64,000 bases of DNA from an uncultured Saccharofermentans sp. (GCA_905234715.1 CAJOJI010000001.1:8582-72581), one strand, 5' to 3'; counted from the first letter of the stretch, positions 4,277 through 21,532 are shown. Notes: generated from the sequence alone by a model not told the origin. Translations and numbers: made by a program.

Positions 4277-4299
4277 CGTGCTTTTCTCCTGTTTATCTA

Positions 4300-5181: not shown

Positions 5182-5246
5182 TTTGGTAATCTCCTTTAGA
5201 TGTGTTTTGTTTAGCTTTTCGCTTTAAGAATGATTTGTTTTGGCAT

Positions 5247-5280
5247 AAAAATGCCCGGTGAGTGATTTATCTCCCGGGCG
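5247..5280 (-). terminator. Attenuator terminator upstream of metQ
   Basis: mRNA GCCCGG-GAG...CUC-A-CCGGGC followed by AUUUUU. It lies between the leader stop and the metQ RBS. Confidence 0.8.
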
Positions 5281-5311
5281 CATGGCATATGTTCAAATGC
5301 AATTTACTGCT

Positions 5312-5437
5312 TTAACATCGATCGTTCTCAAGGCGTGAGGAATGTCTTCTTCCGCCCTGGGCCATATAGCGCACCCGGGAGCCGAGCATTCGACAACACA
5401 TCATCATGTTAGCTGTTGTATTAGTTGTTCTATACAT
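5312..5437 (-). CDS. Leader peptide A, 41 aa: MYRTTNTTANMMMCCRMLGSRVRYMAQGGRRHSSRLENDRC
   Basis: AAAGGAGG RBS 8 nt before ATG 5437, an MMMCCRM codon cluster, and a downstream terminator. Too short for the ORF track. Confidence 0.85.
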   Translation of the reverse strand: MYRTTNTTANMMMCCRMLGSRVRYMAQGGRRHSSRLENDRC

Positions 5438-5468: not shown

Positions 5469-5503
5469 ACTTTACTACTCATAACCTACCATGTCAATAG
5501 GTT
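5469..5503 (-). promoter_or_regulatory. Sigma-A promoter (TTGACA-17-TAAAGT) with AACCTA-N9-TAGGTT operator
   Basis: -35 at 5492-5497, -10 at 5469-5474, perfect palindrome arms at 5483-5488 and 5498-5503. Confidence 0.75.
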
Positions 5504-5558
5504 TATTGAAATTTTTTTTCGCTTTCTTGAAAATTCCTGTTTTACTTGCTTTCGCGTA

Positions 5559-6122
5559 TTAAGAGATAACTGTCTTCTGCTTATTCTTATTTACTTCACT
5601 ATGCTGTGACAGCTGATACTTATCGAAAAGTTTTACGTACATAAGCGGTACTGCTCCGACGATCGCAGCACTTGCCTGGATACCGTTGGGAATAACCGAA
5701 CCCAATGCCGCTTCAACACCATACATAAACGGCAGTGATTCAAATGCAAAATAACCGGCGATCATGATGAGTTCGGCAATGAAAGATGCTGACAGTTTTC
5801 TTCCGAGGGAAACTTTTCCCTGAGCATTTCTCTTAAGCAGCAAACCTGCAATAAGGCCCATCACACCTTTGATGAGAAATGTAGCAACTGCATACTGCGG
5901 ATAACCGGCAAGAAGGTCTGCAAGTGTCGATCCGATCGCTGCGGGAACGAATGCAAAAGGTCCCATTATGTATGAAGTTACCAGTATCATAAGGTCACCT
6001 AAATTGATGTGTCCGATCGCTGTCGGAATGTGAAGTTCAGTGCCTACAAATATCAAGGCTGCGAGCACACCTGCGTATGCGATCTTCTTTAAATTGTTTC
6101 TGTTCTTGTCTTTACTGCTCAT
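5559..6122 (-). CDS. ECF transporter S component (HmpT/PdxU-like sequence family)
   Basis: About six hydrophobic helices, with AxxxA-type first helix, INLGD, GSTLADLLAGY and TFLIKG motifs. Confidence 0.85.
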   Translation of the reverse strand: MSSKDKNRNNLKKIAYAGVLAALIFVGTELHIPTAIGHINLGDLMILVTSYIMGPFAFVPAAIGSTLADLLAGYPQYAVATFLIKGVMGLIAGLLLKRNAQGKVSLGRKLSASFIAELIMIAGYFAFESLPFMYGVEAALGSVIPNGIQASAAIVGAVPLMYVKLFDKYQLSQHSEVNKNKQKTVIS

Positions 6123-6152
6123 GTTTTAATTCTCCTTTAACAATTATTTTTA

Positions 6153-6191
6153 CAAAAACAAAAACGGGAATTCTTTTTTAAGAACTCCCGT
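6153..6191 (-). terminator. Attenuator terminator upstream of the ECF S-component gene
   Basis: mRNA ACGGGAGUUCUU-AAAA-AAGAAUUCCCGU (12 bp, one G:U) followed by UUUUGUUUUUG. Confidence 0.85.
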
Positions 6192-6232
6192 ACAGTAACC
6201 ATTTTGCTTTGCGATCTTTATGTCATGGGTAA

Positions 6233-6310
6233 TCAGATCACTCCGGTCATATGCGGGAGGGTGACTAAAGCAGGGCACATGCAGATCATAGTGGCCTGAA
6301 TGCTTTTCAT
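6233..6310 (-). CDS. Leader peptide C, 25 aa: MKSIQATMICMCPALVTLPHMTGVI
   Basis: GGAGGAGGT RBS 7 nt before ATG 6310, an MICMC codon cluster, and a downstream terminator. Confidence 0.75.
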   Translation of the reverse strand: MKSIQATMICMCPALVTLPHMTGVI

Positions 6311-6339
6311 TGTCTTACCTCCTCCGATATGATGCGATA

Positions 6340-6374
6340 AAGTTAACATGTATTACCTATCGTGTCAATGGGTT
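6340..6374 (-). promoter_or_regulatory. Sigma-A promoter (TTGACA-17-TAACTT) with AACCCA-N9-TAGGTA operator variant
   Basis: -35 at 6363-6368, -10 at 6340-6345, palindrome variant at 6354-6374 in the same register as the other three sites. Confidence 0.7.
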
Positions 6375-6477
6375 TATTCTCAAGAATTCAAACATCAAGC
6401 ATAATTTAGTATGTCTTCATAAATATTGTTTTTTGCTATAATCTATCTCGATTTCGGGAAAGAAAAGGAATAACCAT

Positions 6478-7164
6478 ATGAAGAGATTAAAGATAGTATC
6501 AGTAATACTTACGGCATCTGTCCTCGCAGGAATCACGTCCTGCTCATCTGAACCTGCCGGAACAACTTCCTCTTCAATGGAACCTACAACTACGGCAGAA
6601 GTTGAAACAGAAGCAACAACGGCCGAACCTGAGATCACGGAAACCACACGCATCGATCCGCAGTCGACCGAACCTTTATGCCATATCTATTTTGAAGAAT
6701 ACGATTCTTTCGAAGTAACATCGACGGATCTTGTTGACGGCGTATGGGCAGACATAACATCCAACACATTCTTAGGCGAGAACCTTTCACCTCAGCTTTC
6801 ATGGGAGCCTGTCGAAGGCGCTGAAGAATACGTCATCTATATGGTCGACAGAAATTCAAACGGTTTTCTTCAGTGGAAATCTGCAGGAATCAAAACGACT
6901 GAACTCCCTCAGGGATGGACATCCAATCTTACCGAATATAACGGACCGCATCTCGGACACGGATATACACACATTTACGATATTTATGTAATAGCTTTAA
7001 GAGCACCGACGACAAGACTTAAAGGTGCATTAAACGCTGCCAATCCGAGACTTGAAGAATTCTTTGAAGAGATCGATACAGACACCGAAGGCAATACGGG
7101 AAACATCATTGCCTACGGAACAATATCCGGCATATTCACAGACGCAAGATACAGAAATATCTGA
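6478..7164 (+). CDS. YbhB/YbcL (PEBP/Raf kinase inhibitor-like) lipoprotein
   Basis: Lipobox ITSC, T/E-rich linker, GENLSPQLSW...YVIYMVD...YNGP..HGYTHIY.IYVIAL. Confidence 0.7.
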   Translation: MKRLKIVSVILTASVLAGITSCSSEPAGTTSSSMEPTTTAEVETEATTAEPEITETTRIDPQSTEPLCHIYFEEYDSFEVTSTDLVDGVWADITSNTFLGENLSPQLSWEPVEGAEEYVIYMVDRNSNGFLQWKSAGIKTTELPQGWTSNLTEYNGPHLGHGYTHIYDIYVIALRAPTTRLKGALNAANPRLEEFFEEIDTDTEGNTGNIIAYGTISGIFTDARYRNI

Positions 7165-7680
7165 TCAGGTTTTATTGTTCTGAATTTTTTTCGACTTGAT
7201 GATGAAGGTAATTACCGTCACCATGAAGAATGCAAAATAGACCATCATCACGGGTGATACAAGAAGACTCGTAACCATCGATAGAATATCGATGTTAAGT
7301 GAAGCATCCCGGCCGAAGATAAGTTTGTCGCCGCCGGCTACATAATAGATAAAACCAACCGAAATAGAAGCAAAGTAGTAAATTATCAGAGCAATTCCCG
7401 CACCTGTTTTGGTCTTCATTTTCTCACTCGATACCACGATTATGGTGGCAATAAGAAGGAGCACCCCAGAAAAAACAGTCGCAAACATATAGACAGGTAC
7501 AATAGTCTTGGGACTATAGCCTGAAGTTATCAGGGATGAATACTGCGGATTTCCCAGAATGAACTTACCGAACTGCCTGATAATTCCCTTCTGGCATAAG
7601 GTGCAGATGACTATTATCAGAAGCGAGACCAGTACAGGTATTGCCATTCCAATGATCTTTTTCTTATATGTCTTATCCAT
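7165..7680 (-). CDS. Hypothetical membrane protein
   Basis: 171-aa ORF with about four hydrophobic segments and an RBS. Confidence 0.6.
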   Translation of the reverse strand: MDKTYKKKIIGMAIPVLVSLLIIVICTLCQKGIIRQFGKFILGNPQYSSLITSGYSPKTIVPVYMFATVFSGVLLLIATIIVVSSEKMKTKTGAGIALIIYYFASISVGFIYYVAGGDKLIFGRDASLNIDILSMVTSLLVSPVMMVYFAFFMVTVITFIIKSKKIQNNKT

Positions 7681-7715
7681 AGCGTGATTCCTCTTAGTTT
7701 TGCTTCGGTACTATA

Positions 7716-8252
7716 TCACTTATTTTCAGCGTCTCTGAAAACCCTTGAACCGGTAGCGCCTCTTTGTCCCTGATACTTACCGTCGTAAGGATTGATAGCG
7801 TGATCATCCATCTCGGCGAAAACGAGCTGGCCTACTCTTCTTCCCGCCTTAAGCTCAATTGCGCATCTATTTGCATTATAAAGTTCAAGCGTGATCTCGC
7901 CCTTGAAGCCCGGATCTACCCATCCGGCATTCTGAATGAAAAGTCCCATTCTTCCGAGTGAGCTTCTTCCTTCAACAAATGCAGTCAGATTATCGGGGAG
8001 CTCGAAATATTCCATCGTGGTTGCGAGGACAAACTGTCCCGGCATTATGAGATATGTATCTGTCGTGATGGTCTTGTACTTGATCTCATTTTCTAATGTG
8101 ATGACGCTTGAAGGCGTATCATCAACAACGCTGAATGTGCGTCCCAAACGGATATCAACACTTGCAGGCTGGATCTGTTCCTTTGTAACAGGATCGATCA
8201 CAAGTGTTTTTTCTTCAAGCATCTTAAGTATTGTTCTGTCAGATAAGATCAT
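7716..8252 (-). CDS. dcd: dCTP deaminase
   Basis: [51 protein letters not shown]. Confidence 0.93.
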
Positions 8253-9061
8253 ATTTCGCCCTCACGATTCTTATTTAAATTACTTGCAGGAGTATAACAT
8301 ATAACGCTGTTCTCACTGCTGTATTTCTTTCCTTCCAAGAGGCTGAAAGCGTGCTGCTTTCCGACGCCTCCAAACCATTCGTACGGTTTATCCTCAGCGG
8401 TCTTGCCTTCGCATATCTCCCGGATTCCGTTGCGCATGCATCTGATAAGAGATATATCATCAAAATCCTGTGCATGACCGTGAAGGATGCGGTCAGCCCT
8501 GTCTTCAAGGAACATTATCCTGTCCAGAGCTTTTACGTATTCAGGCAGCGGCGAGCAGCCGTCAAGCTGCATCCAAAGATGGTGATTTATCGCATCACCC
8601 GTAAAGAGGATCCTGTCTTCTCTCAAAAGCAGTACGATGCTTCCGGGTGTATGTCCGGGCAGCTCGAAAACTTCCAATGTCTTTCCTCCGATATCGATTA
8701 CATCGCCTTCATTTATTGCTTTAAAAGGCGGCATCTTCAGACCGTATTTTTCGGTTTCTGTTATGAATTCAGGAAGCTTTGTGAACGATTCAGCAAGTTC
8801 AAAATCCTTGGGATCGAGATACGCCTCATCAAAATAAAGATTGCCGAAAATGTGATCCGGATGTCCGTGCGTGTTTACGACAACGATAGGCTTGTCAGTA
8901 ACTTTCCTTACTGCTTTTTTAAGGTCGTTTAAACCGTTCATCGTGTCGATGACACAGACCTTTTCTTCGCCTATAACAAAATAACCTGAAGCCATGTGTC
9001 CTTCATCCATCAAATAGATATCGGGTGTTAATTGCTTAACAAACAACTCAAGTTTTTCCAT
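8249..9061 (-). CDS. MBL-fold metallo-hydrolase
   Basis: [16 protein letters not shown] and LFTGD motifs. Confidence 0.88.
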
Positions 9062-9820
9062 TTAACATTCTCCTTTTATCCTCTTTGCGATCTCGATAGC
9101 AATGTCAAATTTATCGAGCGAATGATTAGCCTCATGCAGTCCCTCGGGAGTGTAATCAGGCTGATCGACAACGTCGCCCGCAACCAGGAAATCGTACAGT
9201 TCAAAACCGTGATAATCACACACGGCCTGAACACCAGCAAGCTCCATTTCGACTGCTATGCAGCCTTCGTCCTTACGCTGCTTTACGAGATCTCTGGTTT
9301 CTCTGTAAAGTGCGTCGGTCGTCCAGACTTTTCCTTTGATGAAAGGAAGTCCTTTTTCATCAAATAGGCCTGCAAGGAAATCCGCATTCTTTATGTCGAT
9401 GTAGTCTGCAGGAGGCGCATAATGATAAGACATTCCTTCATCGCGGTAAGCTTGTGTCGGAATGATATATCTGCCGTTGATCTTATCAGGATCCAATGCT
9501 CCGCACGATCCGAACAGAATAAACTTATCCGAGCCTATCTTCCAGTTGGCTTCCATTACATCCGTAGATGCCAGGCAGGATCCTACTTCAGAAAGATAAA
9601 ATCCGAGCTTCATGCCGTCAACATCGATCAAGTGGATCGGCCTTATCAGATTGCATGAACGGAACTCCTCGATCTTTTCGTTGGGATAGGTATTGAGCAC
9701 CGTCTCGAATATCTCACGTGAGAATGTGATAACTGTTGTATCTACTATCTTTTTCTGCTCTCCGAAAAAAGAAGCCGGAGAGATTATCGCTTCACTGTTA
9801 TCAAAAGAATCGGTTATCAT
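9062..9820 (-). CDS. Nucleoside phosphorylase family protein
   Basis: FGSCGAL, RDEGMSYHY, WTTDALYRET and AVEMELAG motifs. Confidence 0.85.
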   Translation of the reverse strand: MITDSFDNSEAIISPASFFGEQKKIVDTTVITFSREIFETVLNTYPNEKIEEFRSCNLIRPIHLIDVDGMKLGFYLSEVGSCLASTDVMEANWKIGSDKFILFGSCGALDPDKINGRYIIPTQAYRDEGMSYHYAPPADYIDIKNADFLAGLFDEKGLPFIKGKVWTTDALYRETRDLVKQRKDEGCIAVEMELAGVQAVCDYHGFELYDFLVAGDVVDQPDYTPEGLHEANHSLDKFDIAIEIAKRIKGEC

Positions 9821-10308
9821 TTTTCTTTCCTCTCATCAGTCACGAAATGCCTTACAGTTTCAGAAGGGCATTTCAGTTCGCTTCTGAAAAACTCAGGGTA
9901 CATGGTTTTCTCTTCTTCAGGAGATACCCACACAAGATGCTCTTTGCATCCGTCTTCGGTAAAGTCGCTTGATACAGGTTCAAAATCTTCAGGAACTTTC
10001 ATATAGAAGAAATACGACACCTCATATATCAGCTTTCCCCTCCTTGAAAGCAAATCACCGTAGAAATAATTCTCGTGAATAAAGCCAAGTCTGTCGACTT
10101 CCATCTTAATTCCTGTCTCTTCGAATACTTCACGGATCACTGCTTCTTCCGCAGTCTCTCCGAAACGGATCCTGCCGCCCACTGAATAAAGATAGTCGAC
10201 ACGGCTGTTGCCGACCATCAGGAACTTCCCGTTTTTCAGAATAATCGCCCCTACCCTGATGTTGATAAAACCATCATCACAGGGGACTGTCATGTCAGTA
10301 TTTTTCAT
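9817..10308 (-). CDS. NUDIX hydrolase
   Basis: Nudix box GGRIRFGETAEEAVIREVFEETG. Confidence 0.9.
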   Translation of the reverse strand: MKNTDMTVPCDDGFINIRVGAIILKNGKFLMVGNSRVDYLYSVGGRIRFGETAEEAVIREVFEETGIKMEVDRLGFIHENYFYGDLLSRRGKLIYEVSYFFYMKVPEDFEPVSSDFTEDGCKEHLVWVSPEEEKTMYPEFFRSELKCPSETVRHFVTDERKEK

Positions 10309-10379
10309 ATTGAATTCCTATATCCTCTCTGAGCATCCTGGCTCAGATAATTAAGGATTATAACATAAGGATCCCGGAA

Positions 10380-11621
10380 TTAAGGTGCCTCAAATCCGGC
10401 AACATCACTTGCGCCTGAAGACACGACTTCATAAGGTATTCCGTTCTCTTTAAGAAGTGCAAGGAAAGCATCTGCTACAGACGTTCCTTCAAATCTCTGC
10501 TGGACTGAAAGAGAAATATTACCGCCTGCCGCACCTAAAAGGACCATAAGGCTGAAAGTGCATGGCGGATGGGTCCAGAATTCCTTCATGTATTCTCCGA
10601 TCGAAGGATACTTCCATTTTCCCGGATAACTTACCAGATAACTTATAAATCCTTCACCGCCGTTGAACATCGCCGTAAAGATATTTTTTCTTTCCTGCAA
10701 AGATGGTGTCGATGACATTATTCCTTTAACAACTGATGCATTTACTGCAAGTCCTGATGCTACCTGCTCTTCCCTGCTCTGAACGAATGTCTTGCCGCGG
10801 TAAACCGTGCCCTGCATTTCAAGAGGCATCGACTTTACTACAGGAGAATAATCGAAAACCGACATGCCGAGACAGTTATGGTTTGTAGCTTCAGCACCGA
10901 CCATGGGACGCGCATTGATGACATATGCGCTGACGATAGGCTTGGTCCTTTCAGGATATAAAGAATCGATTGTTTTACCCATCAGGAGTTCGACCATCGT
11001 GCCCGGAGTCGAATCGTTTTCGCGCACAAATTTCACGAAGGCATCTTCAGGGATTATTATGTCCCAGATCAGAGGTGATGACTTAGTAAGTCCGCCGTCA
11101 GTCTCCAATGTAAAAGCAGGAGAATATGCCGCATCAGGAGCAGGCACTTCTTCCATCGTGTCCTGCGGATCTGCCATCTCGGCAGCGATATCTGAAGATT
11201 CAAGTTCAGGTATTTCATCTATTCCGTAAAACATCCTGCAGTAGTTATAAAGGATCACCGCAAGCACTCTGTACATTCCGGTGCCGTCCGTAATGCCATG
11301 GAAGAAATCCAGATAAATGAAGTCTTCTTTATATGACACAGACCAGACGTGAAAATTGGTTTCTTCAGAATTCAGGATTACACGAGAATCACCTTCACGT
11401 ACCACTATCGGAAGATCGTTATCCGCATATTCATAGGAGTCGCCTGTGCATACGAGGCGCCCCATGAAATAAGGGAATCTTGAAGATGCAAAAGATACAG
11501 CAGAGAACAACACAACAGGATCGACATTATCTTTAAGTCTGACCTTGAACCTGACCGTGTAATCAACACCTGCGCCGATCGCACCGTAAACATGCATTGT
11601 ATCTCCGGTAGTGATCTTCAT
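10380..11621 (-). CDS. CoA-dependent acyltransferase / condensation-like protein
   Basis: FFHGITDGTG matches the HxxxDG motif; VINARP and SYPG segments; 413 aa. Confidence 0.55.
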   Translation of the reverse strand: MKITTGDTMHVYGAIGAGVDYTVRFKVRLKDNVDPVVLFSAVSFASSRFPYFMGRLVCTGDSYEYADNDLPIVVREGDSRVILNSEETNFHVWSVSYKEDFIYLDFFHGITDGTGMYRVLAVILYNYCRMFYGIDEIPELESSDIAAEMADPQDTMEEVPAPDAAYSPAFTLETDGGLTKSSPLIWDIIIPEDAFVKFVRENDSTPGTMVELLMGKTIDSLYPERTKPIVSAYVINARPMVGAEATNHNCLGMSVFDYSPVVKSMPLEMQGTVYRGKTFVQSREEQVASGLAVNASVVKGIMSSTPSLQERKNIFTAMFNGGEGFISYLVSYPGKWKYPSIGEYMKEFWTHPPCTFSLMVLLGAAGGNISLSVQQRFEGTSVADAFLALLKENGIPYEVVSSGASDVAGFEAP

Positions 11622-11673
11622 GCCGTGTTCACCTCGTTTGAAGAATTGCTGTTCTTATTATACTAAACGCTGT

Positions 11674-12489
11674 TTATGCTTTTGTGGCAGAGATGATGAA
11701 ATGAGGGCTGATGCCCATCATGGATTCTTCGTGTTCCGTGGTCCTTATTATCTTTAAAAGTCTCTCGCGCTTATCGTCATCTTTCCACTTCTCAGCAATA
11801 TCGGGAGTGATCCATGAACAGCCTTCGACAGCAGCACTCTCTGTTACCTTAAAACCTGCTTCGCTGATCTCATCTCTTAATCCGTCGATGGTGTGGAAAT
11901 ATGCATTTGAGATAAAGTAAGGATATTCCTTAGGTCTTATGTGTTCACCTGTTTCCATCTCGCGCATTATCATGTCCATATAAATGTCATCGCTGATGAA
12001 TTCGTTGGCAGTTCCGTAAACAGTCAGAGCCCATGTTGCCGAACTGAATTTTGATATTCCGGCAGCGATCAGAATGCCGTTATCCTTAAGCACACGGTAC
12101 GCCTCCGAAAGAACAGTCAGTCTGTCTTCCTTACTCATCAGATGATAAAGAGGTCCCATGAGAAGCACCATGTCTGCACTGTTGTCAGGCTTGTCAATTT
12201 TACGTGCGTCTCCTACTTCAGCTTCATACGGAACCGTCATGTGTTCTTTTGCATAATCGACAGCCGTGGGAGCAAGCTCGATAAGTGTTACTTCATGTCC
12301 CATGGAAGCAAGCCATTCGGCATACTTTCCGATGCCTCCGCCGATATCGTAGATCTTCATCTTGCCGTTAAGATATCTGCTGATAATTTCTTTGCTTCTC
12401 CAGAACTCAACAACACCGAGGCCTCTTTCAAGACGTCCTATCTCAGCGCCGTTGTTATAAAATTCATATACTTCATCTATTCTTTCCAT
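11674..12489 (-). CDS. Class I SAM-dependent methyltransferase
   Basis: IYDIGGGIG, GDAR, DMVLLMGPLYHL. Confidence 0.88.
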   Translation of the reverse strand: MERIDEVYEFYNNGAEIGRLERGLGVVEFWRSKEIISRYLNGKMKIYDIGGGIGKYAEWLASMGHEVTLIELAPTAVDYAKEHMTVPYEAEVGDARKIDKPDNSADMVLLMGPLYHLMSKEDRLTVLSEAYRVLKDNGILIAAGISKFSSATWALTVYGTANEFISDDIYMDMIMREMETGEHIRPKEYPYFISNAYFHTIDGLRDEISEAGFKVTESAAVEGCSWITPDIAEKWKDDDKRERLLKIIRTTEHEESMMGISPHFIISATKA

Positions 12490-12503
12490 ATTCTTTTACT
12501 CCG

Positions 12504-13016
12504 TTAATCATTCAAGACCGAATCTATGGCCTGTTCGTAATCATCTTCTATCAATGTGACTGCCTGACCGAACCGCTGTCGGAATGTTTGATTGTCAGCT
12601 TTAATGCTTTCCATTGTGCAGTCATCATAAAGTCTCTTCTCGACAACAGACTCTTTATCCTTTATGTCGTCGAAATGCTTTTCGATGTAATCATCTGAAA
12701 ATGCGAGACAGATAAACCTTATAGATGATTGATATTGATCGTCAAAATCCTGCTGCCAGTTGTGCGGAACATAGCATCCTTCAATGATCATGTCCTGGCC
12801 ATTCTCGATCGCGGTCTTGATCATCTCTCTTACGACGGGCCAGAGGTAATCTGTAAGCTTGTCATCATCCATGGGAGTAAGATCAGTCATGCCGCTTCTT
12901 ATGAGGCCCATCTTCAGGTGGTCTATGGACATGCAGGGATAGTTATATTTCCCGATCAGCTTCTTAGCGAGAAATGTCTTTCCTGTATGTGTTGCACCTG
13001 TAATCAGTATGATCAT
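12504..13016 (-). CDS. P-loop kinase-like / AAA family protein
   Basis: Walker A GATHTGKT and IIEG motif. Confidence 0.7.
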   Translation of the reverse strand: MIILITGATHTGKTFLAKKLIGKYNYPCMSIDHLKMGLIRSGMTDLTPMDDDKLTDYLWPVVREMIKTAIENGQDMIIEGCYVPHNWQQDFDDQYQSSIRFICLAFSDDYIEKHFDDIKDKESVVEKRLYDDCTMESIKADNQTFRQRFGQAVTLIEDDYEQAIDSVLND

Positions 13017-13047
13017 TTATTATCTCCATATGTCTTTAGCGAAAAGT

Positions 13048-13947
13048 TTACCCCCAAGATTCGATCGCTTCAACAGAGAGATCCACAAGATGTTCGCCTT
13101 CCACTCCGTCCATTGTATGTGTAGCTCCTTCGATAACGAAAAACTGCACATTCGGGAACGCAGCTAATGCAGGCTTGAAGAAATCGGGATCTTCTCCGAA
13201 GCTTCCCTCAGTTCCCGTGAATATGATCACAGGTATCTTGCATGTCTCAAGGATCGGATAGAGGTCTCTGTCTATCAGGACTTCATCTTCGAACCACATG
13301 ATTTCGGGAGCATAAAAACTCGGATCGACAAGTATAAGTCCTTTGATCTCATCCTGCCTGTAGGTTCCCGCGTAGCATACAACGATGCCGCCCATACTGT
13401 GTCCGTACAGATAGATATTCGAAGTATCAACTTCAGGAAGATATTCACATGAATCAATAACGGCGTACAGGTCTTTTATCTGGTCCACAACAAAGTTGCC
13501 CAGAAACGCCGGATCCTCACCTGACTCAGGACGCGTGCCATTCTGACAGAGAAATTCGATTACCGCAAAACCGTGCTCGCTGTAATGCTCGGCTTTATCC
13601 GAATATCTTCCGAGAGGCGCATATAATCCGCTGGTAATTATGATCGTCTTAAAAGGCCCCTGACCCTGGGGAACTGTAAGCCTGGCGTAGATCTCGCCTC
13701 CGTCGCGGTAGAAGATTACTTCCTTCGTTCTGCCTTCACTCTTTGAAACCGCAGGCATTAATATCGAATACTCGATGGGCGGGAATTCTTCCACCTTGAC
13801 CAGTCTTGTCTTGATTGGCTGTCTATCGGCATTTTCATTCATCACTTTACCGGGCTTTACAGGCTGCGGTTTTGAACACGAAGCCAGAAGGCAGGCGGTA
13901 ACTACTATCAATATCAGACACTTTATTCTTGATGATCTTTTTCTCAT
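13048..13947 (-). CDS. Alpha/beta hydrolase lipoprotein
   Basis: Lipobox LASC, nucleophile elbow GHSMGG, C-terminal GATH. Confidence 0.8.
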   Translation of the reverse strand: MRKRSSRIKCLILIVVTACLLASCSKPQPVKPGKVMNENADRQPIKTRLVKVEEFPPIEYSILMPAVSKSEGRTKEVIFYRDGGEIYARLTVPQGQGPFKTIIITSGLYAPLGRYSDKAEHYSEHGFAVIEFLCQNGTRPESGEDPAFLGNFVVDQIKDLYAVIDSCEYLPEVDTSNIYLYGHSMGGIVVCYAGTYRQDEIKGLILVDPSFYAPEIMWFEDEVLIDRDLYPILETCKIPVIIFTGTEGSFGEDPDFFKPALAAFPNVQFFVIEGATHTMDGVEGEHLVDLSVEAIESWG

Positions 13948-15071
13948 TACTTCATGATAACAAGCTCGTAATCACGTGTTCCGATTCCGATCTTCTCTCC
14001 GTGTTCAAGTGTTTCTTCCCACGAAACATTCGGATTGCTGTTGTGCCAGACATCACCGTGATCGTGGAAATGATCACTGTTCATATTATCACCTAACTGG
14101 CTGTTTCTGACAGGCTCGGCCTTCTGGCAGAGATCAACGCACGCCTGGTCCAGAGCAACCGGATCAAATGAAGCGAGCATTCCGATATCAGGAAGGATGG
14201 GCGCATCGTTCTCACCGTGGCAGTCGCAGTTCGGCGAAACATCCGTGATAAGACTTATGTGGAAGTTCGGTCTGCCGCTGATGACAGCTGCCGTATACTC
14301 GGCCATCTTTCTTCCAAGCATCGATGCTGCATCCCAGTTATCGTTTTCGATGGCATCGAATGCGCATGCTCCGATGCAGCGGCCGCATCCCTTACACTTA
14401 TCGGGATCGATCCTCGCTTTGCCGTTCTCGTAGATAAATGCGTCTGAACCGCATTCCTTAGAGCATCTTCTGCACCCTTTGCAGCGTTCGGTGATAACAT
14501 GGGGATGGCCGCTCTGATGTTGCTGCATCTTACCCGCACGGGAACCGCAACCCATGCCGATGTTCTTTATACAGCCGCCGAAGCCGGCCTGCTCATGTCC
14601 TTTGAAATGCGTAAGGGAGATAAAGATATCGGCATCCATTACGGCACGGCCGATGTAAGCTTCCTTGCAGTACTCACCATTGGGAACAGGAACGATTATG
14701 TCGTCAGTTCCTCTAAGTCCGTCAGCGATGATTATCTGGCATCCGGTAGTTATCGTGTTAAAACCGTTGATATTAGCGCAGTCCAGGTGTTCGAGCGCAT
14801 GCTTACGGCTTCCGGGATAAAGCGTATTGCAGTCGGTTAAAAAAGGCATTCCGCCGAGTTCTTTAACAACGTCAGCTACAGCCTTCGCATAATTGGGTCT
14901 TAAATATGCGAGATTTCCAAGTTCGCCGAAATGCATCTTGATCGCAACAAACTTGTTGTCCATATCGATAGACTGGATTCCCGCAAGCCTTATGAGCTTT
15001 TGAAGCTTGGCAGTAAGAGGCGTACCAAGACCCGTACGAAAATCAGTAAAATACACTTTTGATTTATCCAT
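13947..15071 (-). CDS. DUF362 domain protein with two 4Fe-4S ferredoxin motifs
   Basis: VAIKMHFGE, HFKGHE, KNIGMG, and two CxxCxxCxxxC motifs. Confidence 0.85.
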   Translation of the reverse strand: MDKSKVYFTDFRTGLGTPLTAKLQKLIRLAGIQSIDMDNKFVAIKMHFGELGNLAYLRPNYAKAVADVVKELGGMPFLTDCNTLYPGSRKHALEHLDCANINGFNTITTGCQIIIADGLRGTDDIIVPVPNGEYCKEAYIGRAVMDADIFISLTHFKGHEQAGFGGCIKNIGMGCGSRAGKMQQHQSGHPHVITERCKGCRRCSKECGSDAFIYENGKARIDPDKCKGCGRCIGACAFDAIENDNWDAASMLGRKMAEYTAAVISGRPNFHISLITDVSPNCDCHGENDAPILPDIGMLASFDPVALDQACVDLCQKAEPVRNSQLGDNMNSDHFHDHGDVWHNSNPNVSWEETLEHGEKIGIGTRDYELVIMK

Positions 15072-15176
15072 TTAGCACCTCCCGGCAATAATCAGACTAT
15101 CGTTCAGATAGAAAAATTATAGCATTTTGGAGGTGCAAAAATGAATTATATTACGGTCTTATCTGTTCAGTTCCTT

Positions 15177-15830
15177 TTATGTCTTTCTGTGCTTCTTGGA
15201 CATCCAAATACCGATTTCCTGAATGAGCATTACCATGATTATCAGTAATGCAACCGTGGTAAAGAGAACATCTTTCTGGTAGCTGTAATAGCCGTACTGC
15301 AGTGCAATTGCACCGAGTCCGCCACCTCCGATGACGCCTGCCATTGCAGAGTAACCGAGTACGGTTGCAACGTTGATGGCGCCGCCCTGAAGAAGTGAAG
15401 GTGTTGCTTCAGGAATGATGAAATGAAGTATCGTATAAAGAGGTGATGCACCCATTGATGTGGCGGCTTCAATAATTCCCGGCTGTACTTCATTAAGCGA
15501 TGATTCGACCATTCGCGCAACGATCGGGATAGCGCCTATCGTGAGAGGTACGATTGCAGCCGTGGTACCGATGGACTGGCCTACGATAAATCTCGTAAAC
15601 GGGATGAGGAGCACGAGGAGGATCAGGAACGGCAATGACCGAGTGATGTTTACGATGGCTCCGATAATGAAGTTGACGGGCCTGTTCTCGAGCAGACGTC
15701 CTTTTGATGTCGCATAGAGCAGGACGCCCAAAGGCATTCCGACCGCATATGAAAAAAGCGAAGCGAAGAATGTCATTACAAACGTCTCCCAGACACCTGT
15801 TATTATTGCTTCTCTGATGTAATCACTCAT
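15177..15830 (-). CDS. metI: Methionine ABC transporter permease MetI
   Basis: VNITRSLPFLILLV, ARMVESSL, YSAMAGVIGGGGLG. Confidence 0.93.
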   Translation of the reverse strand: MSDYIREAIITGVWETFVMTFFASLFSYAVGMPLGVLLYATSKGRLLENRPVNFIIGAIVNITRSLPFLILLVLLIPFTRFIVGQSIGTTAAIVPLTIGAIPIVARMVESSLNEVQPGIIEAATSMGASPLYTILHFIIPEATPSLLQGGAINVATVLGYSAMAGVIGGGGLGAIALQYGYYSYQKDVLFTTVALLIIMVMLIQEIGIWMSKKHRKT

Positions 15831-16830
15831 ATCTGTTTACCTCCGACACCGACAGGCCGCCCTTTCTGAAAAAGTCGATGACAGTCTTACGGTCCTTTTC
15901 AGATTCAGGCAGTTCGATGATCATCTGACCGTAACCGATGCCGCCGACGCTTCTCGTGTTCGCACTCAGGATGTTTACCTTAAGGCCTGTCTCCTCAACG
16001 AGATTTGCAATGAACGGCACGTTCGACTGTGTGCCGTCGAAAACGATTCTTACAAGCTGTCCGTTCTCATCAGAAGGATCGAAAGGATTGCTCGGGAATA
16101 CGAGTTTTTTCGCTGCTTTCGACCGGGGATTTGAAAAGACTTCCTTAACATCGCCTATCTCTGCAAGAGTACCGTCATCTATAATGGCAACACGGTCGCA
16201 GATCTTTTCCACAACACTCATCTCGTGCGTAATTATGACGATCGTCAGTTTTCTTTCTTCGTTGATCTTCTTCAAAAGATCCAGTATCTCGCCCGTTATC
16301 TTCGGATCAAGAGCGCTCGTTGCCTCATCGCACAAAAGCACTTTCGGATCTACTGCAAGCGCTCTTGCTATGGCAACTCTCTGCTTCTGACCGCCCGAAA
16401 GACGTGCGGGATATTCATTTGCCTTCTCAAGAAGACCAACGATCTCAAGCATCTGTTTTGCCTTTTCGCGTCTGATATTGCGCGGTGTTCCGATGATCTT
16501 CAAAGACTGCTCAACGTTCTGGATAACAGTGCGCTGGTTGATAAGATTGAAGCCCTGGAAGATCATGGAGATCGAATGTCTTACTTCTCGAAGTTCTTTG
16601 GGCTTAAGTGCAGCAAGATCATCTCCGTAGAAATTAACCGTACCCGAGCTGACTTCCTCAAGTCTGTTCAGCGTTCGTACAAGTGTTGATTTGCCTGCAC
16701 CGCTCATGCCGATTATGCCGAATATCTCACCTTCATTTATGGTAAGACTTACATCCTTGAGCGCAGTGAATTCCTTGCCGTCGTTCTTATAAGTCTTGTA
16801 TACGTTTTTTAATTCATATACGTTTTCCAT
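15823..16830 (-). CDS. metN: Methionine ABC transporter ATP-binding protein MetN
   Basis: GMSGAGKST, LSGGQKQRV, LCDEATSALDP, C-terminal NIL domain. Confidence 0.93.
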   Translation of the reverse strand: MENVYELKNVYKTYKNDGKEFTALKDVSLTINEGEIFGIIGMSGAGKSTLVRTLNRLEEVSSGTVNFYGDDLAALKPKELREVRHSISMIFQGFNLINQRTVIQNVEQSLKIIGTPRNIRREKAKQMLEIVGLLEKANEYPARLSGGQKQRVAIARALAVDPKVLLCDEATSALDPKITGEILDLLKKINEERKLTIVIITHEMSVVEKICDRVAIIDDGTLAEIGDVKEVFSNPRSKAAKKLVFPSNPFDPSDENGQLVRIVFDGTQSNVPFIANLVEETGLKVNILSANTRSVGGIGYGQMIIELPESEKDRKTVIDFFRKGGLSVSEVNRYE

Positions 16831-17745
16831 TTAATCGAATAATCCTTTGCTTAAATATCTGTCTCCTCTGTCAGGGAAAACAGTTACTATGTTTCCTTCA
16901 TCAATTTCTTCCGCAAGCTTAAGTGCTGCCGCAAGTGCCGCACCTGATGAAGAACCGGCAAGAATGCCTTCGTGCTTTGCGAGTTCTCTTGAAGCATTGA
17001 ATGCTTCATCGTCATTGATCTTTATGACCTTATCAACAAGCGTGATATCCATCGTATCTGCTATAAAGTCGTTGCCGATACCTTCGATGTTGTAATCGAA
17101 ATGTTCTCCTCCGCCGATCGTTGAACCGTAAGGATCTGCAAGAACTCCGACGATATCCGGGTTTTGCTCCTTGAGATACTTAACGACTCCGGAGAATGTT
17201 CCGCCGCTTCCTGCGCCTGCTACAAAGTAATTGATATTACCGTCAAGCTGTGAATAGATTTCAGGTCCTGTTGTCTCATAGTGAGCAAGAGGGTTAGCGG
17301 GATTTCTGAACTGTCTTAATGAAACAGAACCTGGAATGGTCTTAAGTATTTCTTCGGCTTTCTGCTCTGCTCCGAGCATTCCGCCTTCTCTTGATGTGTG
17401 AACGATTTCGGCACCCAATGCCTTCATGACTTTCTGCTTCTCGACTGAGAACTTTTCAGGCACCGTGAATATTACTCTGTATCCCTGGTTAAGCGCTGCA
17501 ACTGCGATTCCGATACCGGTATTGCCCGCTGTGGCATCAACGATCGTTCCGCCTTCTTTAAGTATTCCTCTCTTTCTTGCGTCATCGATCATGTAAACGC
17601 CTACACGGTCTTTTACGCTTCCTGCGGGGTTCATAAGTTCAAGTTTTGCATAGATATTTACTCCGGGCTTAATGCCCATATGGGAGATCTTAAGGATCGG
17701 AGTATTACCGATCATCTGTCTTACATTTTCATATACGTTATTCAT
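16831..17745 (-). CDS. mccA: PLP-dependent cysteine synthase family, MccA-like (O-acetylserine-dependent cystathionine beta-synthase)
   Basis: NPAGSVKDR, TAGNTGIG, FSVEKQ and GAGSGGTF; adjacent to an mccB-like gene. Confidence 0.75.
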   Translation of the reverse strand: MNNVYENVRQMIGNTPILKISHMGIKPGVNIYAKLELMNPAGSVKDRVGVYMIDDARKRGILKEGGTIVDATAGNTGIGIAVAALNQGYRVIFTVPEKFSVEKQKVMKALGAEIVHTSREGGMLGAEQKAEEILKTIPGSVSLRQFRNPANPLAHYETTGPEIYSQLDGNINYFVAGAGSGGTFSGVVKYLKEQNPDIVGVLADPYGSTIGGGEHFDYNIEGIGNDFIADTMDITLVDKVIKINDDEAFNASRELAKHEGILAGSSSGAALAAALKLAEEIDEGNIVTVFPDRGDRYLSKGLFD

Positions 17746-17755
17746 TTCATTTACC

Positions 17756-18910
17756 TCACGCCTTAACGGAATTCTCGATTGCCTGCTTCAGATCTGCGAT
17801 CAGATCATCAACATCTTCAATGCCTACTGAAAGTCTGATGAGTTCATCAACGATTCCTACTTCTTTTCTGATGTCAGCAGGGATTGCTGCATGTGTCATC
17901 GTTGCAGGATGGCATACGAGTGATTCAACGCCGCCCAAACTTTCTGCAAGAGTAATGAGCTGAAGCTTCTCGAAAAACAACTTGTAATCGTACTTGTCGT
18001 TAAGAACAAATGAGATCATTGCGCCGGCACCGTCAGCCTGCTTTTTCTGGATCTCATAACCCGGATCAGTCTTAAGACCGGGATAGTAAACCTTGCTTAC
18101 ATAACCGCTGTCCACGAGCCACTCAGCAACCTTCTGCGCATTCGCAACATGTCTGTCCATACGGACACCTAAAGTCTTGATACCTCTTATGATGAGGAAG
18201 CTGTCCCAGGGTGCAAGCACTCCGCCGATTGCATTCTGCAGATAGTAAAGTCTGTCCGCAAGCTGCTTGTCGTTTACTACCACGAAGCCTGAAATCGTAT
18301 CAGAGTGACCGCCGAGATATTTTGTTCCGCTGTGGATTACGATGTCTGCACCGAGCGTCAAAGGTCTCTGAAGATAAGGTGTAAGGAATGTGTTGTCTAC
18401 GATAACGAGCTTGTCGTGCTTCTTGCCGATCTTGGATACCGCTTCGATATCAGTGATCGTGAGAAGCGGGTTTGCAGGTGTCTCGATATAGATTGCTTTT
18501 ACATCATCGTCGATCGCATTTTCGACAGCTTCAAGATCGGATGTATCAACGATCTTGTATGTGATATTGAAGTTCTTGAAAACGTTGTCGAGGATACGGA
18601 ACGTACCACCGTAAATGTTATCCGAAACGATGAGCTTATCGCCTGATTTAAAGAGCGAGAGAACCGTGTTGATGGCAGCAAGTCCTGATGCGAATGCAAG
18701 ACCGTACTGTCCTTCTTCGAGATCTGCAATGAGCTTCTCGAGTGCTGCTCTGGTGGGGTTGCCAGTTCTCGAATATTCCCAACCTCTGTTTTTGCCTAGA
18801 CCGTCCTGCTTATATGTAGATGTCTGGTATACGGGAATGTTTACCGCACCTGTTGTCTCGTCTCCGTCAATACCGCCGTGTATAAGTAAAGAATTTCTTT
18901 TGTAACTCAT
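17756..18910 (-). CDS. mccB: Cystathionine gamma-lyase, MccB-like (Cys/Met metabolism PLP family)
   Basis: PVYQTSTY, EYSRTGNPTR, HSGTKYLGGHSD, LAESLGGVESL. Confidence 0.75.
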   Translation of the reverse strand: MSYKRNSLLIHGGIDGDETTGAVNIPVYQTSTYKQDGLGKNRGWEYSRTGNPTRAALEKLIADLEEGQYGLAFASGLAAINTVLSLFKSGDKLIVSDNIYGGTFRILDNVFKNFNITYKIVDTSDLEAVENAIDDDVKAIYIETPANPLLTITDIEAVSKIGKKHDKLVIVDNTFLTPYLQRPLTLGADIVIHSGTKYLGGHSDTISGFVVVNDKQLADRLYYLQNAIGGVLAPWDSFLIIRGIKTLGVRMDRHVANAQKVAEWLVDSGYVSKVYYPGLKTDPGYEIQKKQADGAGAMISFVLNDKYDYKLFFEKLQLITLAESLGGVESLVCHPATMTHAAIPADIRKEVGIVDELIRLSVGIEDVDDLIADLKQAIENSVKA

Positions 18911-18936
18911 TTTATTTTCCTTCTTTCGTAATTTGC

Positions 18937-18972
18937 AAAAATTAAGCCCGGGATGAGCGATCTTCCCGGGCT
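18937..18972 (-). terminator. Attenuator terminator upstream of mccB
   Basis: mRNA AGCCCGGGA-(10-nt loop)-UCCCGGGCU followed by UAAUUUUU. Confidence 0.85.
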
Positions 18973-18999
18973 GTTGGTGGTTGATGTTTTATATTGAAG

Positions 19000-19098
19000 T
19001 CAACATCGCACATCGTCAAGGCGCATGTTCATGCAGTCAAACGCCAAGGCCGATTCAGCCCCTGGAATATGCATTCGACAACACATGATCATTAACAT
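19000..19098 (-). CDS. Leader peptide B, 32 aa: MLMIMCCRMHIPGAESALAFDCMNMRLDDVRC
   Basis: GGAGG RBS 8 nt before ATG 19098. Shares MxMCCRM and RLxxxRC-stop with leader A. Confidence 0.87.
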   Translation of the reverse strand: MLMIMCCRMHIPGAESALAFDCMNMRLDDVRC

Positions 19099-19138
19099 TT
19101 CGTTCGCCTCCGTTTTTGGTTTTCTATGGCATGCACAC

Positions 19139-19172
19139 ATTATGCCACATAAACCTACCTTGTCAATAGGTT
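19139..19172 (-). promoter_or_regulatory. Sigma-A promoter (TTGACA-16-TGnCATAAT) with AACCTA-N9-TAGGTT operator
   Basis: -35 at 19161-19166, -10 at 19139-19144, perfect palindrome at 19152-19172, immediately after the iscU stop. Confidence 0.75.
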
Positions 19173-19179
19173 ATTCAGA

Positions 19180-19560
19180 TTATTTTTCTTCCTGCCTGGA
19201 TTCATAGTCCTTGAGAGCAGCTTCAATTGCTTCCTGTGCAAGGACTGAACAGTGCATCTTATAGTCAGGCAGACCGTCCAAAGCTTCTGCAACTGCTTTG
19301 TTTGTAAGCTGTCTTGCTTCCTCAACGGGCTTGCCCTTGATGAGTTCAGTTGCCATTGAGCTTGATGCAATTGCGCTTCCGCATCCGAATGTCTCGAACT
19401 TAACATCCTTTACGATGTCATCTTCGATCTTGAGATACATCTTCATGATGTCTCCGCACTTAGCGTTACCTACTGTGCCTACACCGTTTGCGTCTTCAAG
19501 AACGCCTACGTTTCTCGGATTTCTGAAATGATCCATTACTTTCTCACTATATAAAGCCAT
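19180..19560 (-). CDS. iscU: Fe-S cluster scaffold IscU/NifU
   Basis: YSEKVMDHFRNPRNVG, CGD, FGCGSAIAS, KMHCS. Confidence 0.95.
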   Translation of the reverse strand: MALYSEKVMDHFRNPRNVGVLEDANGVGTVGNAKCGDIMKMYLKIEDDIVKDVKFETFGCGSAIASSSMATELIKGKPVEEARQLTNKAVAEALDGLPDYKMHCSVLAQEAIEAALKDYESRQEEK

Positions 19561-19572
19561 GTTGATGCCCCC

Positions 19573-20763
19573 TTATAAAATGAATTGTGTCTTTCCTGCT
19601 ACGAGGTCTCTCCAGACCGGCGAAAAACCTCTCAGGTATTCAACAACTTCTTTGACTGACTTGATTATGTAATCAGCTTCTTCATCAGTAATATCTTCAC
19701 CGATGCTCAGACGAAGTGAACCGTGCGCTACATCGTGCACTCTTCCGATCGCAAGAAGAACATGGCTCGGATCGAGTGATCCTGAAGTACATGCACTTCC
19801 CGAAGATGCCGCGATTCCCTTATCATCCAGCAGGAGCAAAAGCGACTCGCCTTCGATTCCTTCAAAACAGAAATTAATGTTGCTCGGAAGACGGCTATTT
19901 TCATCACCGTTCAATGCAGAATGAGGTATTTCCTTAAGGCCTGCAATGATCTTATTTCTTATCTTAGTAAGATGCTCTGTATTCTTGTCGATGTTATTTA
20001 CTGCATCGTTTAGAGCCGTTGCCATCGCAGCAATTCCGGGTACATTTTCCGTACCTGCTCTTTTGCCCTTTTCCTGAGCGCCGCCTTCGATAAGATTTGT
20101 AAGTCTGATTCCCTTCTTGAAGTAAAGGAATCCTACACCCTTAGGTCCGTGGAATTTATGTGCGGAAGCCGAGAGCATATCGATATTTTCTTCATTAACA
20201 TCGATATGAAGATGTCCGATTGCCTGTACAGCATCAGTGTGGAAGAGCACGCCCTTTTCTCTGCATACGGCACCGATACCCTTGATATCCTGGATGGTTC
20301 CGATCTCGTTATTTGCATACATTATCGTTACGAGAGCTGTGTCCTCACGGATCGCAGCCGCAACTTCCTCAGGCTTGATTATGCCGTTCTCGTGAACGTC
20401 CAGAAGTGTTATCTTAAAGCCTTCTTTTGCAAGTTTGTTCAATGTGTGAAGAACTGCGTGATGCTCGAACTTACTTGAGATGATGTGCTTCTTGCCATTC
20501 TTCTCTCCGAGTTTTGCAGCAGAGATAATTGCCTGGTTATCGGCTTCGCTTCCGCCGGAAGTAAAAAGGATCTCTTTGGGATCTGCGCCTATCGTCTTTG
20601 CGATATCCTCTCGGGCCTGCTCTAAGACTTCCTTAGCCTTCTGACCGAATTCGTAAAGGCTTGAAGGGTTTCCGTAAGTATCTCTGATAAGAGACGTCAT
20701 TGTATTTATCGCCGCTTCGCTCATCGCTGTGGTTGCAGCATTATCCGCATATATCATGTGCAC
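19573..20763 (-). CDS. iscS: Cysteine desulfurase IscS/NifS
   Basis: [32 protein letters not shown]. Confidence 0.95.
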
Positions 20764-20790
20764 TCATCCTCTCCTGAATAAGATGAACGT

Positions 20791-20825
20791 ATCATAATTC
20801 GTTTAACCCACCAAGTCAATAGGTT
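20791..20825 (-). promoter_or_regulatory. iscS promoter (TTGACT-17-TATGAT) with AACCTA-N9-TGGGTT operator variant
   Basis: -35 at 20814-20819, -10 at 20791-20796, palindrome at 20805-20825. Confidence 0.75.
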
Positions 20826-20845: not shown

Positions 20846-20894
20846 TTGACAAGCTAATTCAGATTAGCTATAATCTGGCTAATTTGGATTAGCC
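20846..20894 (+). promoter_or_regulatory. Consensus sigma-A promoter with two GCTAAT-N4-ATTAGC TetR-type operators
   Basis: TTGACA 20846-20851, 17-bp spacer, TATAAT 20869-20874; palindromes at 20853-20868 and 20877-20894. Confidence 0.8.
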
Positions 20895-20914: not shown

Positions 20915-21532
20915 ATGGATACAAAGCAGAGAATTCTTGATGAAGCACTTACACTCTTTTCCGAGAAAGGTTACGCGAATGTCTTTGTCGGCGACATCGC
21001 TGAGCGGGTCGGAATTAAGGCGCCTTCACTATATAAACACTATAAGAATAAAAGAGCGATTTTCGACGCCATAATCGATCTGATGAATTCCAGATTTGCC
21101 GAGCAGGCCAAGGCACTTCAGATCAGCGGTACCGATGCTGCCGTGGATTCGAAAATATATCAGAACATGTCTGAAGAAAATCTTCTCAAACTAGGACGTG
21201 AATTCTTCCTCTTCTATCTTCATGACGACTACAACAAACGCTTCCGGAAAATGCTCACGTTAGAACAGTTCAGCAGCAAGGAACTTGCAGGGATCTACAC
21301 AAAACTTTATGTCGATGATCCGCTCTCATACCAGAGCATGCTTCTCGGAATGGTCGCAGCAGCAGGAATGCTTCACACGGATGACGTCGAGATAATGACT
21401 CTCCACTTCTACTCGCCCATCTACTACCTGCTAACGATATGCGACAGAGATCCTTCGAGAGAACCATGGGCATTGGAAACTCTGGACAAACACATCAAAC
21501 AATTTAATCGCCTTTACGGGAGGACAAAATAA
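20915..21532 (+). CDS. TetR/AcrR family regulator
   Basis: TKQRILDEALTLFSEKGY...IAERVGIKAPSLYKHY. Confidence 0.93.
   Translation: MDTKQRILDEALTLFSEKGYANVFVGDIAERVGIKAPSLYKHYKNKRAIFDAIIDLMNSRFAEQAKALQISGTDAAVDSKIYQNMSEENLLKLGREFFLFYLHDDYNKRFRKMLTLEQFSSKELAGIYTKLYVDDPLSYQSMLLGMVAAAGMLHTDDVEIMTLHFYSPIYYLLTICDRDPSREPWALETLDKHIKQFNRLYGRTK

Follow-up and report, generated by a model that had tools for sequence, protein, structure and literature searches.

A palindrome built into four sulfur-gene promoters of an uncultured Clostridia bacterium, the probable operator of an IscR-like Rrf2-family repressor

Four promoters sharing one palindrome

A stretch of 64,000 nucleotides from an uncultured Saccharofermentans sp. 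(GCA_905234715.1 CAJOJI010000001.1:8582-72581), referred to here as the window and numbered from its first letter, was examined for a palindrome, AACCTA-N9-TAGGTT, which a first-pass annotation had described at the -35 box of four promoters and attributed to an Rrf2-type repressor. A search of the minus strand recovered all four quoted sequences (5483-5503, 6354-6374, 19152-19172 and 20805-20825), and the common register of the four sites to TTGAC(A/T) was confirmed, each palindrome surrounding its -35 hexamer. The host belongs to the uncultured Clostridia of the rumen or gut; judged by promoter and leader sequence, the named organisms closest to it are Ruminococcaceae RUG13376 and Saccharofermentans metagenome-assembled genomes. 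The same locus was found on ENA and Logan metagenome contigs, and Logan contigs of rumen metatranscriptomes, which are fragmentary and come from 92-99% relatives, indicate that the genes are expressed.

The sites are numbered as putative operators 1 to 4, and all of the features given for them lie on the minus strand. Operator 1 (AACCTATTGACATGGTAGGTT, 5483..5503) surrounds the -35 box TTGACA (5497-5492) of the metQ promoter, which has TAAAGT (5474-5469) as its -10 box. Its target is the operon 3116..5181, composed of a metQ/NlpA lipoprotein gene (4300-5181) and an iron-containing alcohol dehydrogenase gene (adh, 3116-4276), a pair that also lies downstream of the operator in a locus from another genome (L063). 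Operator 2 (AACCCATTGACACGATAGGTA, 6354..6374) surrounds the -35 box (6368-6363) of a promoter with a weak -10 box, TAACTT (6345-6340), and its target gene encodes the S component of an energy-coupling factor (ECF) transporter (5559..6122). Operator 3 (AACCTATTGACAAGGTAGGTT, 19152..19172) surrounds the -35 box (19166-19161) of a promoter with a TG-extended -10 box, CATAAT (19144-19139), which serves the operon 15177..18910; this encodes a cystathionine gamma-lyase/synthase-type pyridoxal phosphate enzyme (mccB, 17756-18910), a cysK/mccA-like PALP enzyme (16831-17745), MetN (15823-16830) and MetI (15177-15830). Operator 4 (AACCTATTGACTTGGTGGGTT, 20805..20825) surrounds the -35 box TTGACT (20819-20814) of the iscS-iscU promoter, with TATGAT (20796-20791) as its -10 box. 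Its target is the operon 19180..20757, in which the gene for a NifS/IscS-type cysteine desulfurase (iscS, 19573-20757) is followed by iscU (19180-19560), and only about 30 nt separate the end of the -10 box from the ATG. The term sulfur promoters, used in the first-pass annotation, is fair in view of the genes downstream, except that no substrate is assigned to the ECF S component. That annotation had also given all four promoters a -10 box 16-17 nt downstream. A promoter scan called three of them, as sigma-70-type promoters (TTGACA-17-TAAAGT, TTGACA-16-CATAAT with TG before the -10 box, and TTGACT-17-TATGAT), while at operator 2 (TTGACA-17-TAACTT) the -10 hexamer matches at 3 of 6 positions and falls below the rule of the scan.

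Operator 3 starts 8 nt past the iscU stop codon (19172-19182), with no terminator in between. Therefore, iscSU transcripts might read into the mccB leader, and a repressor bound at operator 3 could also act as a roadblock. On the ENA scaffold, a gene for an mnmA/trmU-type tRNA 2-thiouridylase (L206, 10718-11785) lies about 100 bp to the left of window position 1; mnmA/trmU often follows iscSU in Clostridium operons.

The significance of the sites was assessed by pattern searches of the whole window. When up to three mismatches were allowed, AACCTATTGACNNGGTAGGTT identified exactly the four sites and no others in 64 kb (0.02 expected), with 0, 3, 0 and 1 mismatches at operators 1 to 4, respectively, and none of 100 shuffles reached four sites. 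The arms alone, searched as AACCYA-N9-TRGGTT with up to one mismatch, again returned only these four sites (0.43 expected). Looser arms of 5+5 bases (ACCTA-N9-TAGGT) at two mismatches matched at chance level, and the four reported sites alone stand out. The common form is a dyad of 21-23 bp, AACCyA-N9-TrGGTT, which is an imperfect palindrome of the kind expected for an Rrf2-family operator, where a length of about 21-25 bp would suit a winged-helix dimer. The sites extend roughly from -38 to -18 and overlap the -35 box and spacer at iscSU, mccB-cysK-like-metNI, metQ and the ECF S-component gene, as would also be expected of such an operator. In a comparison of five related genomes, changes were confined to the N positions and to bases just outside the arms, and the arms of operator 1 are invariant in four related genomes.

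Recurrence of the motif and its linkage to Rrf2 genes

A motif scan was carried out with AACCYATTGACNNGRTRGGTT on one genome per species (185,579 species), yielding at least 119 loci; all subsequent locus counts are among these 119 listed loci unless another set is named. Almost all of them belong to gut or rumen Clostridia (Lachnospiraceae, Oscillospiraceae/Ruminococcaceae, Christensenella, Guopingia and unclassified Clostridia), the others including a few Treponema/Spirochaetaceae, one Anaerovibrio and one Vampirovibrio. About four GC-rich matches have no -10 box and look like chance. A -10 hexamer was found 16-18 nt past the TTGAC hexamer in 106 loci, and in 93 loci IscS, IscU, MetY (O-acetylhomoserine sulfhydrylase), CysK, MetNIQ or MccAB is encoded within the first three downstream open reading frames (ORFs). 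Most of the remaining targets are likewise related to sulfur, iron or iron-sulfur (Fe-S) metabolism: a CysD-like PAPS_reduct protein, a glutamate-cysteine ligase of family 2 (GCS2), FeoA, NifH, a NifB-like radical-SAM (S-adenosylmethionine) protein, a solute-binding protein of family 3 and a pyridine-nucleotide disulfide oxidoreductase. An occurrence at random promoters, which the first-pass annotation had named as an outcome that would overturn its proposal, was not what the species scan returned.

In gut Treponema/Spirochaetaceae (L016, L026, L044, L048 and L068), the operator is likewise set in the promoter, in many cases accompanied by a second site beyond the -10 box, and its targets are a CysD-like gene, nifH and a gene for a methyl-accepting protein. 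No rrf2 gene was found within the Treponema motif loci. In L118, the operator lies upstream of the NifB-like radical-SAM gene. These loci suggest that the regulon, or horizontal transfer of it, extends beyond the Clostridia and includes nitrogenase Fe-S proteins.

Regulator genes near the motif were identified by ORF clustering across all of the loci, which gave Rrf2 as the sole regulator family in many of them (44 loci), and by phmmer searches using CymR and IscR query sequences, which placed an Rrf2 ORF within 8 kb of the motif in 45 loci, but none in the window. The rrf2 gene lies on the same strand and ends 0-90 bp before the operator in 23 loci, is divergent with its start 23-137 bp from the operator in 12 loci, and is located inside the operon governed by the operator in 9 loci; judged from gene order, each of these three arrangements implies a functional link. 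Additional sites with the same arms and spacer but without TTGAC were found upstream of rrf2 in the motif loci, straddling the -10 box (for example AACCTTGTGATACAGTAGGTT; 11 sites against about 0.5 expected). In 13 loci (about 0.1 expected), a second site lies 32-50 bp downstream of the first, over the -10/+1 region. As the second sites point to it, the ideal site appears to be the dyad AACCTACC-N5-GGTAGGTT. This suggests that the inner CC of the left arm becomes TT wherever the site doubles as a -35 box. At the four promoters TT stands in place of this CC, and the operator therefore contains the -35 hexamer TTGACA.

A reverse test was carried out on 80 metagenome loci selected by Rrf2 protein homology alone, in which the arms were sought with up to two mismatches in the 300 bp upstream of rrf2. 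Arms with the 9-bp spacer were found in 54 of the 80 loci, corresponding to 49 of 72 distinct upstream sequences, compared with 0-6 loci for control spacers of 6, 7 and 10-13 bp; matches with spacers of 5 and 8 bp were the same sites in a shifted register. The sites straddle the -10 box of the rrf2 promoter, and the arms are therefore independent of TTGACA. Linkage to rrf2 and a position suited to autoregulation were thus observed in related genomes and not in the window itself.

The Rrf2 proteins linked to the motif score above the cut-off of TIGR00738, the model of the Rrf2 superfamily, and 44 of the 45 contain the pattern C-x6/7-C-x5-C near residues 92/100/106. In an alignment of 22 diverse members (A2), C92, C100 and C106 are invariant, as is a recognition-helix motif, S38-x-K40-Y41-x-E43. 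The proteins thus combine the Rrf2 fold with the three conserved cluster-ligand cysteines expected of an IscR-like Fe-S regulator. Among solved structures, the best match is 4cic, a regulator of the Rrf2/BadM family; Escherichia coli IscR (4hf0/4hf1/4chu) and the CymR proteins of Bacillus subtilis and Staphylococcus aureus come next. On the NCBIfam equivalog models for IscR and CymR, the linked proteins reach roughly equal scores, both below cut-off. Their sequence clusters are not split by neighbour gene (iscS as against metY/cysK), and therefore one family is apparently linked to both gene sets.

Relation to known operators and competing explanations

The palindrome (w)AACCyA-N9-TrGGTT(w) is most probably the operator of a dimeric Rrf2-family repressor of an IscR-like clade in gut and rumen Clostridia, which would be encoded outside the window. 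The proposal of the first-pass annotation, that an Rrf2-type repressor encoded elsewhere binds the sites, is supported by both the motif loci and the reverse test. What the genomes show directly is that the sites are significant and set in promoters, that the motif is conserved, that its regulon consists of sulfur and Fe-S genes and that it is linked to Rrf2 genes. We infer that this genome would carry the regulator gene, that its product would bind and repress, and that an Fe-S cluster would serve as the signal.

Resemblance to characterised systems was assessed by comparison with known consensus sequences. IscR, known from E. coli and, as a Gram-positive example, from Thermincola potens, shares with the proposed regulator the Rrf2 winged-helix dimer with three cluster-ligating cysteines, repression of iscSU from palindromic operators overlapping the promoter, autoregulation, and the gene order rrf2-iscS-iscU, which is found in many related motif loci. 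The first-pass annotation had likened the CC-N13-GG spacing to IscR type-2 sites. The E. coli type-2 motif is xxWWWWCCxYAxxxxxxxTRxGGWWWWxx (PMC4055776), and its CC-N13-GG frame with A/T-rich flanks is indeed present in all four sites, for example as ATAACC-N13-GGTTTA; however, the likeness does not extend to the specific inner bases, CCxYA...TRxGG, where the sites read CCTAT...GTAGG. The linked proteins also differ from IscR in cysteine spacing (C-x6/7-C-x5-C, compared with C-x5-C-x5-C in IscR), the motif regulon further includes cysK, metY, mccAB and methionine transporters, and rrf2 is not adjacent to iscS in this organism. CymR of B. subtilis and S. aureus is, likewise, an Rrf2 repressor, and its targets are cysK, mccAB and genes for the uptake of sulfur compounds. 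A CymR-type gene often lies next to cysK, as in Clostridium acetobutylicum CAC2236-CAC2235 (PMC3828012), and Cpe1786 of Clostridium perfringens is described as being 50% identical to CymR and induced along with iscSU on cysteine limitation (PMC2940859). However, CymR lacks the cluster cysteines and acts via a complex with CysK, whereas the motif-linked proteins keep all three cysteines. Operators of the family can be of comparable length, the consensus operator of ScNsrR being 23 bp (PMC9338935). The same inference, from a conserved palindrome at isc and cys genes together with a linked Rrf2 gene, underlies the comparative IscR/CymR regulon reconstructions that exist for Clostridium (PMC3828012, citing RegPrecise). 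That study describes the IscR and CymR motifs as similar and reports a conserved element upstream of CAC1675 in Clostridia; its supplements list regulon members without site sequences. Within the literature that could be searched, no paper was found with AACCTATTGAC in this context or with GGTAGGT and Rrf2, and the text of the paper on S. aureus CymR offers no consensus.

Several results weigh against the assignment to an Rrf2 regulator. The type-2 pattern with up to three mismatches matched two of the four sites, among 102 matches in the window compared with 63 expected. The 25-bp E. coli IscR type-1 consensus, ATASYYGACTRWWWYAGTCRRSTAT, had no match in the window at up to three mismatches, and the 27-bp B. 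subtilis CymR box, TAAWNCN2ANTWNAN3ATMGGAATTW, had two matches at three mismatches, neither of them at the four sites. None of these three consensus sequences picks out the four sites, and all three were rejected as their identity; the sites work like an IscR/CymR operator but lie outside those specific motif classes. Profile searches for Rrf2 covered all frames of the window and the adjoining 10 kb on the left side of the 104-kb ENA scaffold and detected no rrf2 gene, so that the first-pass annotation was correct that none precedes iscS here; nor were further operator sites found in the 10 kb to the left. The scan pattern required TTGAC, and conservation of the arms in the 119-locus set is therefore partly by construction, the evidence independent of TTGAC being the extra sites upstream of rrf2, the second sites 32-50 bp downstream and the Rrf2-selected reverse test. 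Many of the 80 loci in the reverse test come from the same few human-gut species, so that independent lineages number fewer than 54; the distinct site sequences number 31. Transcript 5' ends were sought in the Logan rumen metatranscriptome contigs, which are too fragmentary and gave none. In addition, the core CTA-N9-TAG fits the generic T-N11-A box of LysR-type transcriptional regulators (LTTRs), and T-N11-A is present in every site.

This last point bears on a rival reading, in which the binder would be a LysR-type sulfur regulator of the CysL/YtlI/CmbR/MetR kind. LTTRs control cysteine and methionine genes in other Firmicutes (PMC2940859), and in L024, L036 and L113 a LysR-family gene directly follows the operator. 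However, LysR genes occur in these 3 of the 119 loci only, where they look like targets and each has a divergent rrf2, compared with the 45 loci containing Rrf2. Moreover, loci chosen by Rrf2 homology bear the motif on the rrf2 promoter itself, and sites over the -35, -10 and +1 positions suit a repressor, unlike the usual LTTR position near -65; this reading is considered highly unlikely. The arrangement in the three LysR loci may reflect a cascade from Rrf2 to a LysR-type sulfur regulator in some Lachnospiraceae. The window also encodes a TetR-family regulator divergent from iscS (20915-21532). Its gene lies 90 bp from operator 4 and its adjacency to iscS is conserved in other assemblies of this organism, which would favour it as the binder. 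The tetR promoter, however, has different palindromes of its own around the -10 box, the other three operators lie 1.6-15 kb from tetR at unrelated promoters, and the TetR family is not enriched in the motif loci. The local TetR was rejected on these grounds, and binding by it or by another window-encoded protein is scarcely credible. The region upstream of tetR (20846-20894, plus strand) contains a perfect sigma-70 promoter, TTGACA-17-TATAAT, serving tetR and a flavin mononucleotide-reductase/flavodoxin-like gene and flanked on the plus strand by the palindromes AGCTAAT-N4-ATTAGCT (20852-20869) and GGCTAAT-N4-ATTAGCC (20877-20894), which are probably a TetR autoregulatory operator unrelated to the sulfur palindrome.

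It is also very improbable that no dedicated regulator is involved and that the palindrome stems from an architecture common to strong promoters (an extended -35 or UP-like flank), from the shared descent of duplicated promoters, or from a hairpin in RNA or DNA. Among close relatives the entire promoter and 5' leader are conserved, not the arms alone, and as RNA the sites would form weak 8-bp hairpins with G-U pairs (-3.2 to -6.9 kcal/mol). However, the same arms and spacing recur at -10 boxes and transcription starts without TTGAC, and the motif is restricted to sulfur and Fe-S genes across families, even in Treponema. The sites also lie upstream of the predicted transcription start, and the hairpins are not significantly better than those of shuffles (z of -1.7 to -2.2) and are followed by no T-run, for which reasons the RNA hairpin was rejected. 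A further alternative is that an Rrf2 protein does bind, but as an activator, or that it acts together with CysK in a CymR-like complex whose signal is O-acetylserine instead of an Fe-S cluster. In many loci rrf2 adjoins cysK or lies in a metY-cysK-rrf2 operon, the scores on the IscR and CymR models are evenly balanced, and some type-2 sites serve E. coli IscR for activation (PMC4055776). With consensus or near-consensus -35 boxes and workable -10 boxes, however, an activator is not needed, operators over the -35, -10 and +1 positions are those of a repressor, and the three cysteines invariant in the linked proteins are absent from B. subtilis CymR in the alignment. Activation or a CysK-dependent complex is therefore regarded as unlikely, and repression by an Rrf2 protein carrying an Fe-S cluster is retained as the more likely reading.

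Probable leader attenuators and the proposed two-tier control

Three of the four promoters feed leaders consisting of a Shine-Dalgarno sequence, a short ORF that includes a run of Met/Cys codons, and a terminator. Thus, of the initiation layer that the first-pass annotation had placed above attenuators, the two-layer arrangement holds for three promoters, and not for iscSU with its short leader. All three leaders are on the minus strand. The metQ leader (5246..5437) contains a 41-codon Met/Cys-rich ORF (5437-5312), an antiterminator strand, CTCCCGGGTGCGC (5381-5369), and a terminator (5281-5246). The mccB leader (18936..19098) contains a 32-codon Met/Cys-rich ORF (19098-19000) and a terminator (18972-18936), and the ECF S-component leader (6164..6310) contains a 25-codon Met/Cys ORF (6310-6233), in which CTCCCG is complementary to CGGGAG of the 5' arm of the terminator (6191-6164). 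Rfam searches of the leaders and the whole window, at gathering and at permissive thresholds, detected neither a SAM riboswitch nor a T-box, nor any other family, at the sulfur leaders. The sole Rfam family above gathering score in the window was the azaaromatic (yjdF) riboswitch (54225-54349, minus strand, 73 bits).

A comparison of 19 leaders from several families revealed, after the Met/Cys run, an invariant CGAATG, N6 and CTCCCGGGCA..ATGGC, which pairs with GCCAT.TGCCCGGGAG, a strand that is also the 5' arm of the terminator. Pairing of this antiterminator helix reaches 96% in alignment A3, with compensatory changes in 8 of 15 pairs; none of 500 shuffles scored as high, and slid controls were 23-49% paired. 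Within the ORF (for example ..MMCCRMxxSR..RLExDRC), Arg is always encoded by CGA and Ser-Arg always by TCC-CGR, and the RNA sequence itself is therefore constrained. Besides the window, this class of leader was found in L007, L008, L011, L023, L034, L047, L052, L053, L062-L064, L066, L073, L077, L079, L096, L115 and L117. A second type of leader ORF, MKQRTN..MMMEMCMWTCRxC.., is present in L019, L028 and L045. If a ribosome stalled at the Cys/Met codons, the 5' strand would remain available and the antiterminator could form. The conserved leader is likely to be a ribosome-mediated Cys/Met attenuator that is widespread in Lachnospiraceae and Oscillospiraceae.

A mechanism can be proposed from this arrangement. 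Bound as a dimer, the regulator would occupy about -38 to -18 and deny RNA polymerase access to iscSU, mccB-cysK-like-metNI, metQ-adh and the ECF S-component gene. Repression by occlusion is indicated because the sites lie on the -35, -10 and +1 positions of promoters that already have consensus hexamers, and the invariant cysteine triad suggests the Fe-S cluster as the signal. By analogy with IscR, the regulator would hold its cluster and repress when cysteine and Fe-S assembly capacity are sufficient; a shortage of cysteine or of Fe-S clusters would lead to loss of the cluster and derepression of the regulon. Three of the four transcripts would then meet a second checkpoint at the Met/Cys leader-ORF transcription attenuator. 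Induction of the rrf2-iscSU operon of C. perfringens on cysteine limitation fits this model of derepression (PMC2940859).

Control of isc and cys promoters by an Rrf2 repressor is a textbook mechanism, and the Met/Cys leader-ORF attenuator is the more unusual feature of the region, which may be seen as the second tier of the same circuit as the operator. The findings further suggest that a cluster-bearing Rrf2 protein governs the supply of cysteine and methionine besides Fe-S assembly. More tentatively, and with the balance tipped slightly against it, a single Fe-S Rrf2 regulator in gut and rumen Clostridia might join the roles that are split between IscR and CymR in model bacteria, acting in series with the Met/Cys attenuator. 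The lineages concerned may include Lachnospiraceae, Oscillospiraceae, Christensenellales and Saccharofermentans-like bacteria, with the motif present without a linked rrf2 in some Treponema. The findings provide a concrete and testable operator, with its regulon, for the homeostasis of sulfur amino acids and Fe-S clusters in the largely uncultured Clostridia of rumen and gut, where regulation has mostly been inferred by analogy, and the consensus is usable for regulon annotation in thousands of metagenome-assembled genomes. If the combined role is correct, such a regulator would couple to Fe-S status the synthesis and uptake of cysteine and methionine, Fe-S assembly and, in some lineages, the genes of Feo iron uptake and of nitrogenase, and control would run through an operator built into the core promoter and a leader-ORF attenuator without an Rfam family, amounting to a two-tier control of sulfur metabolism.

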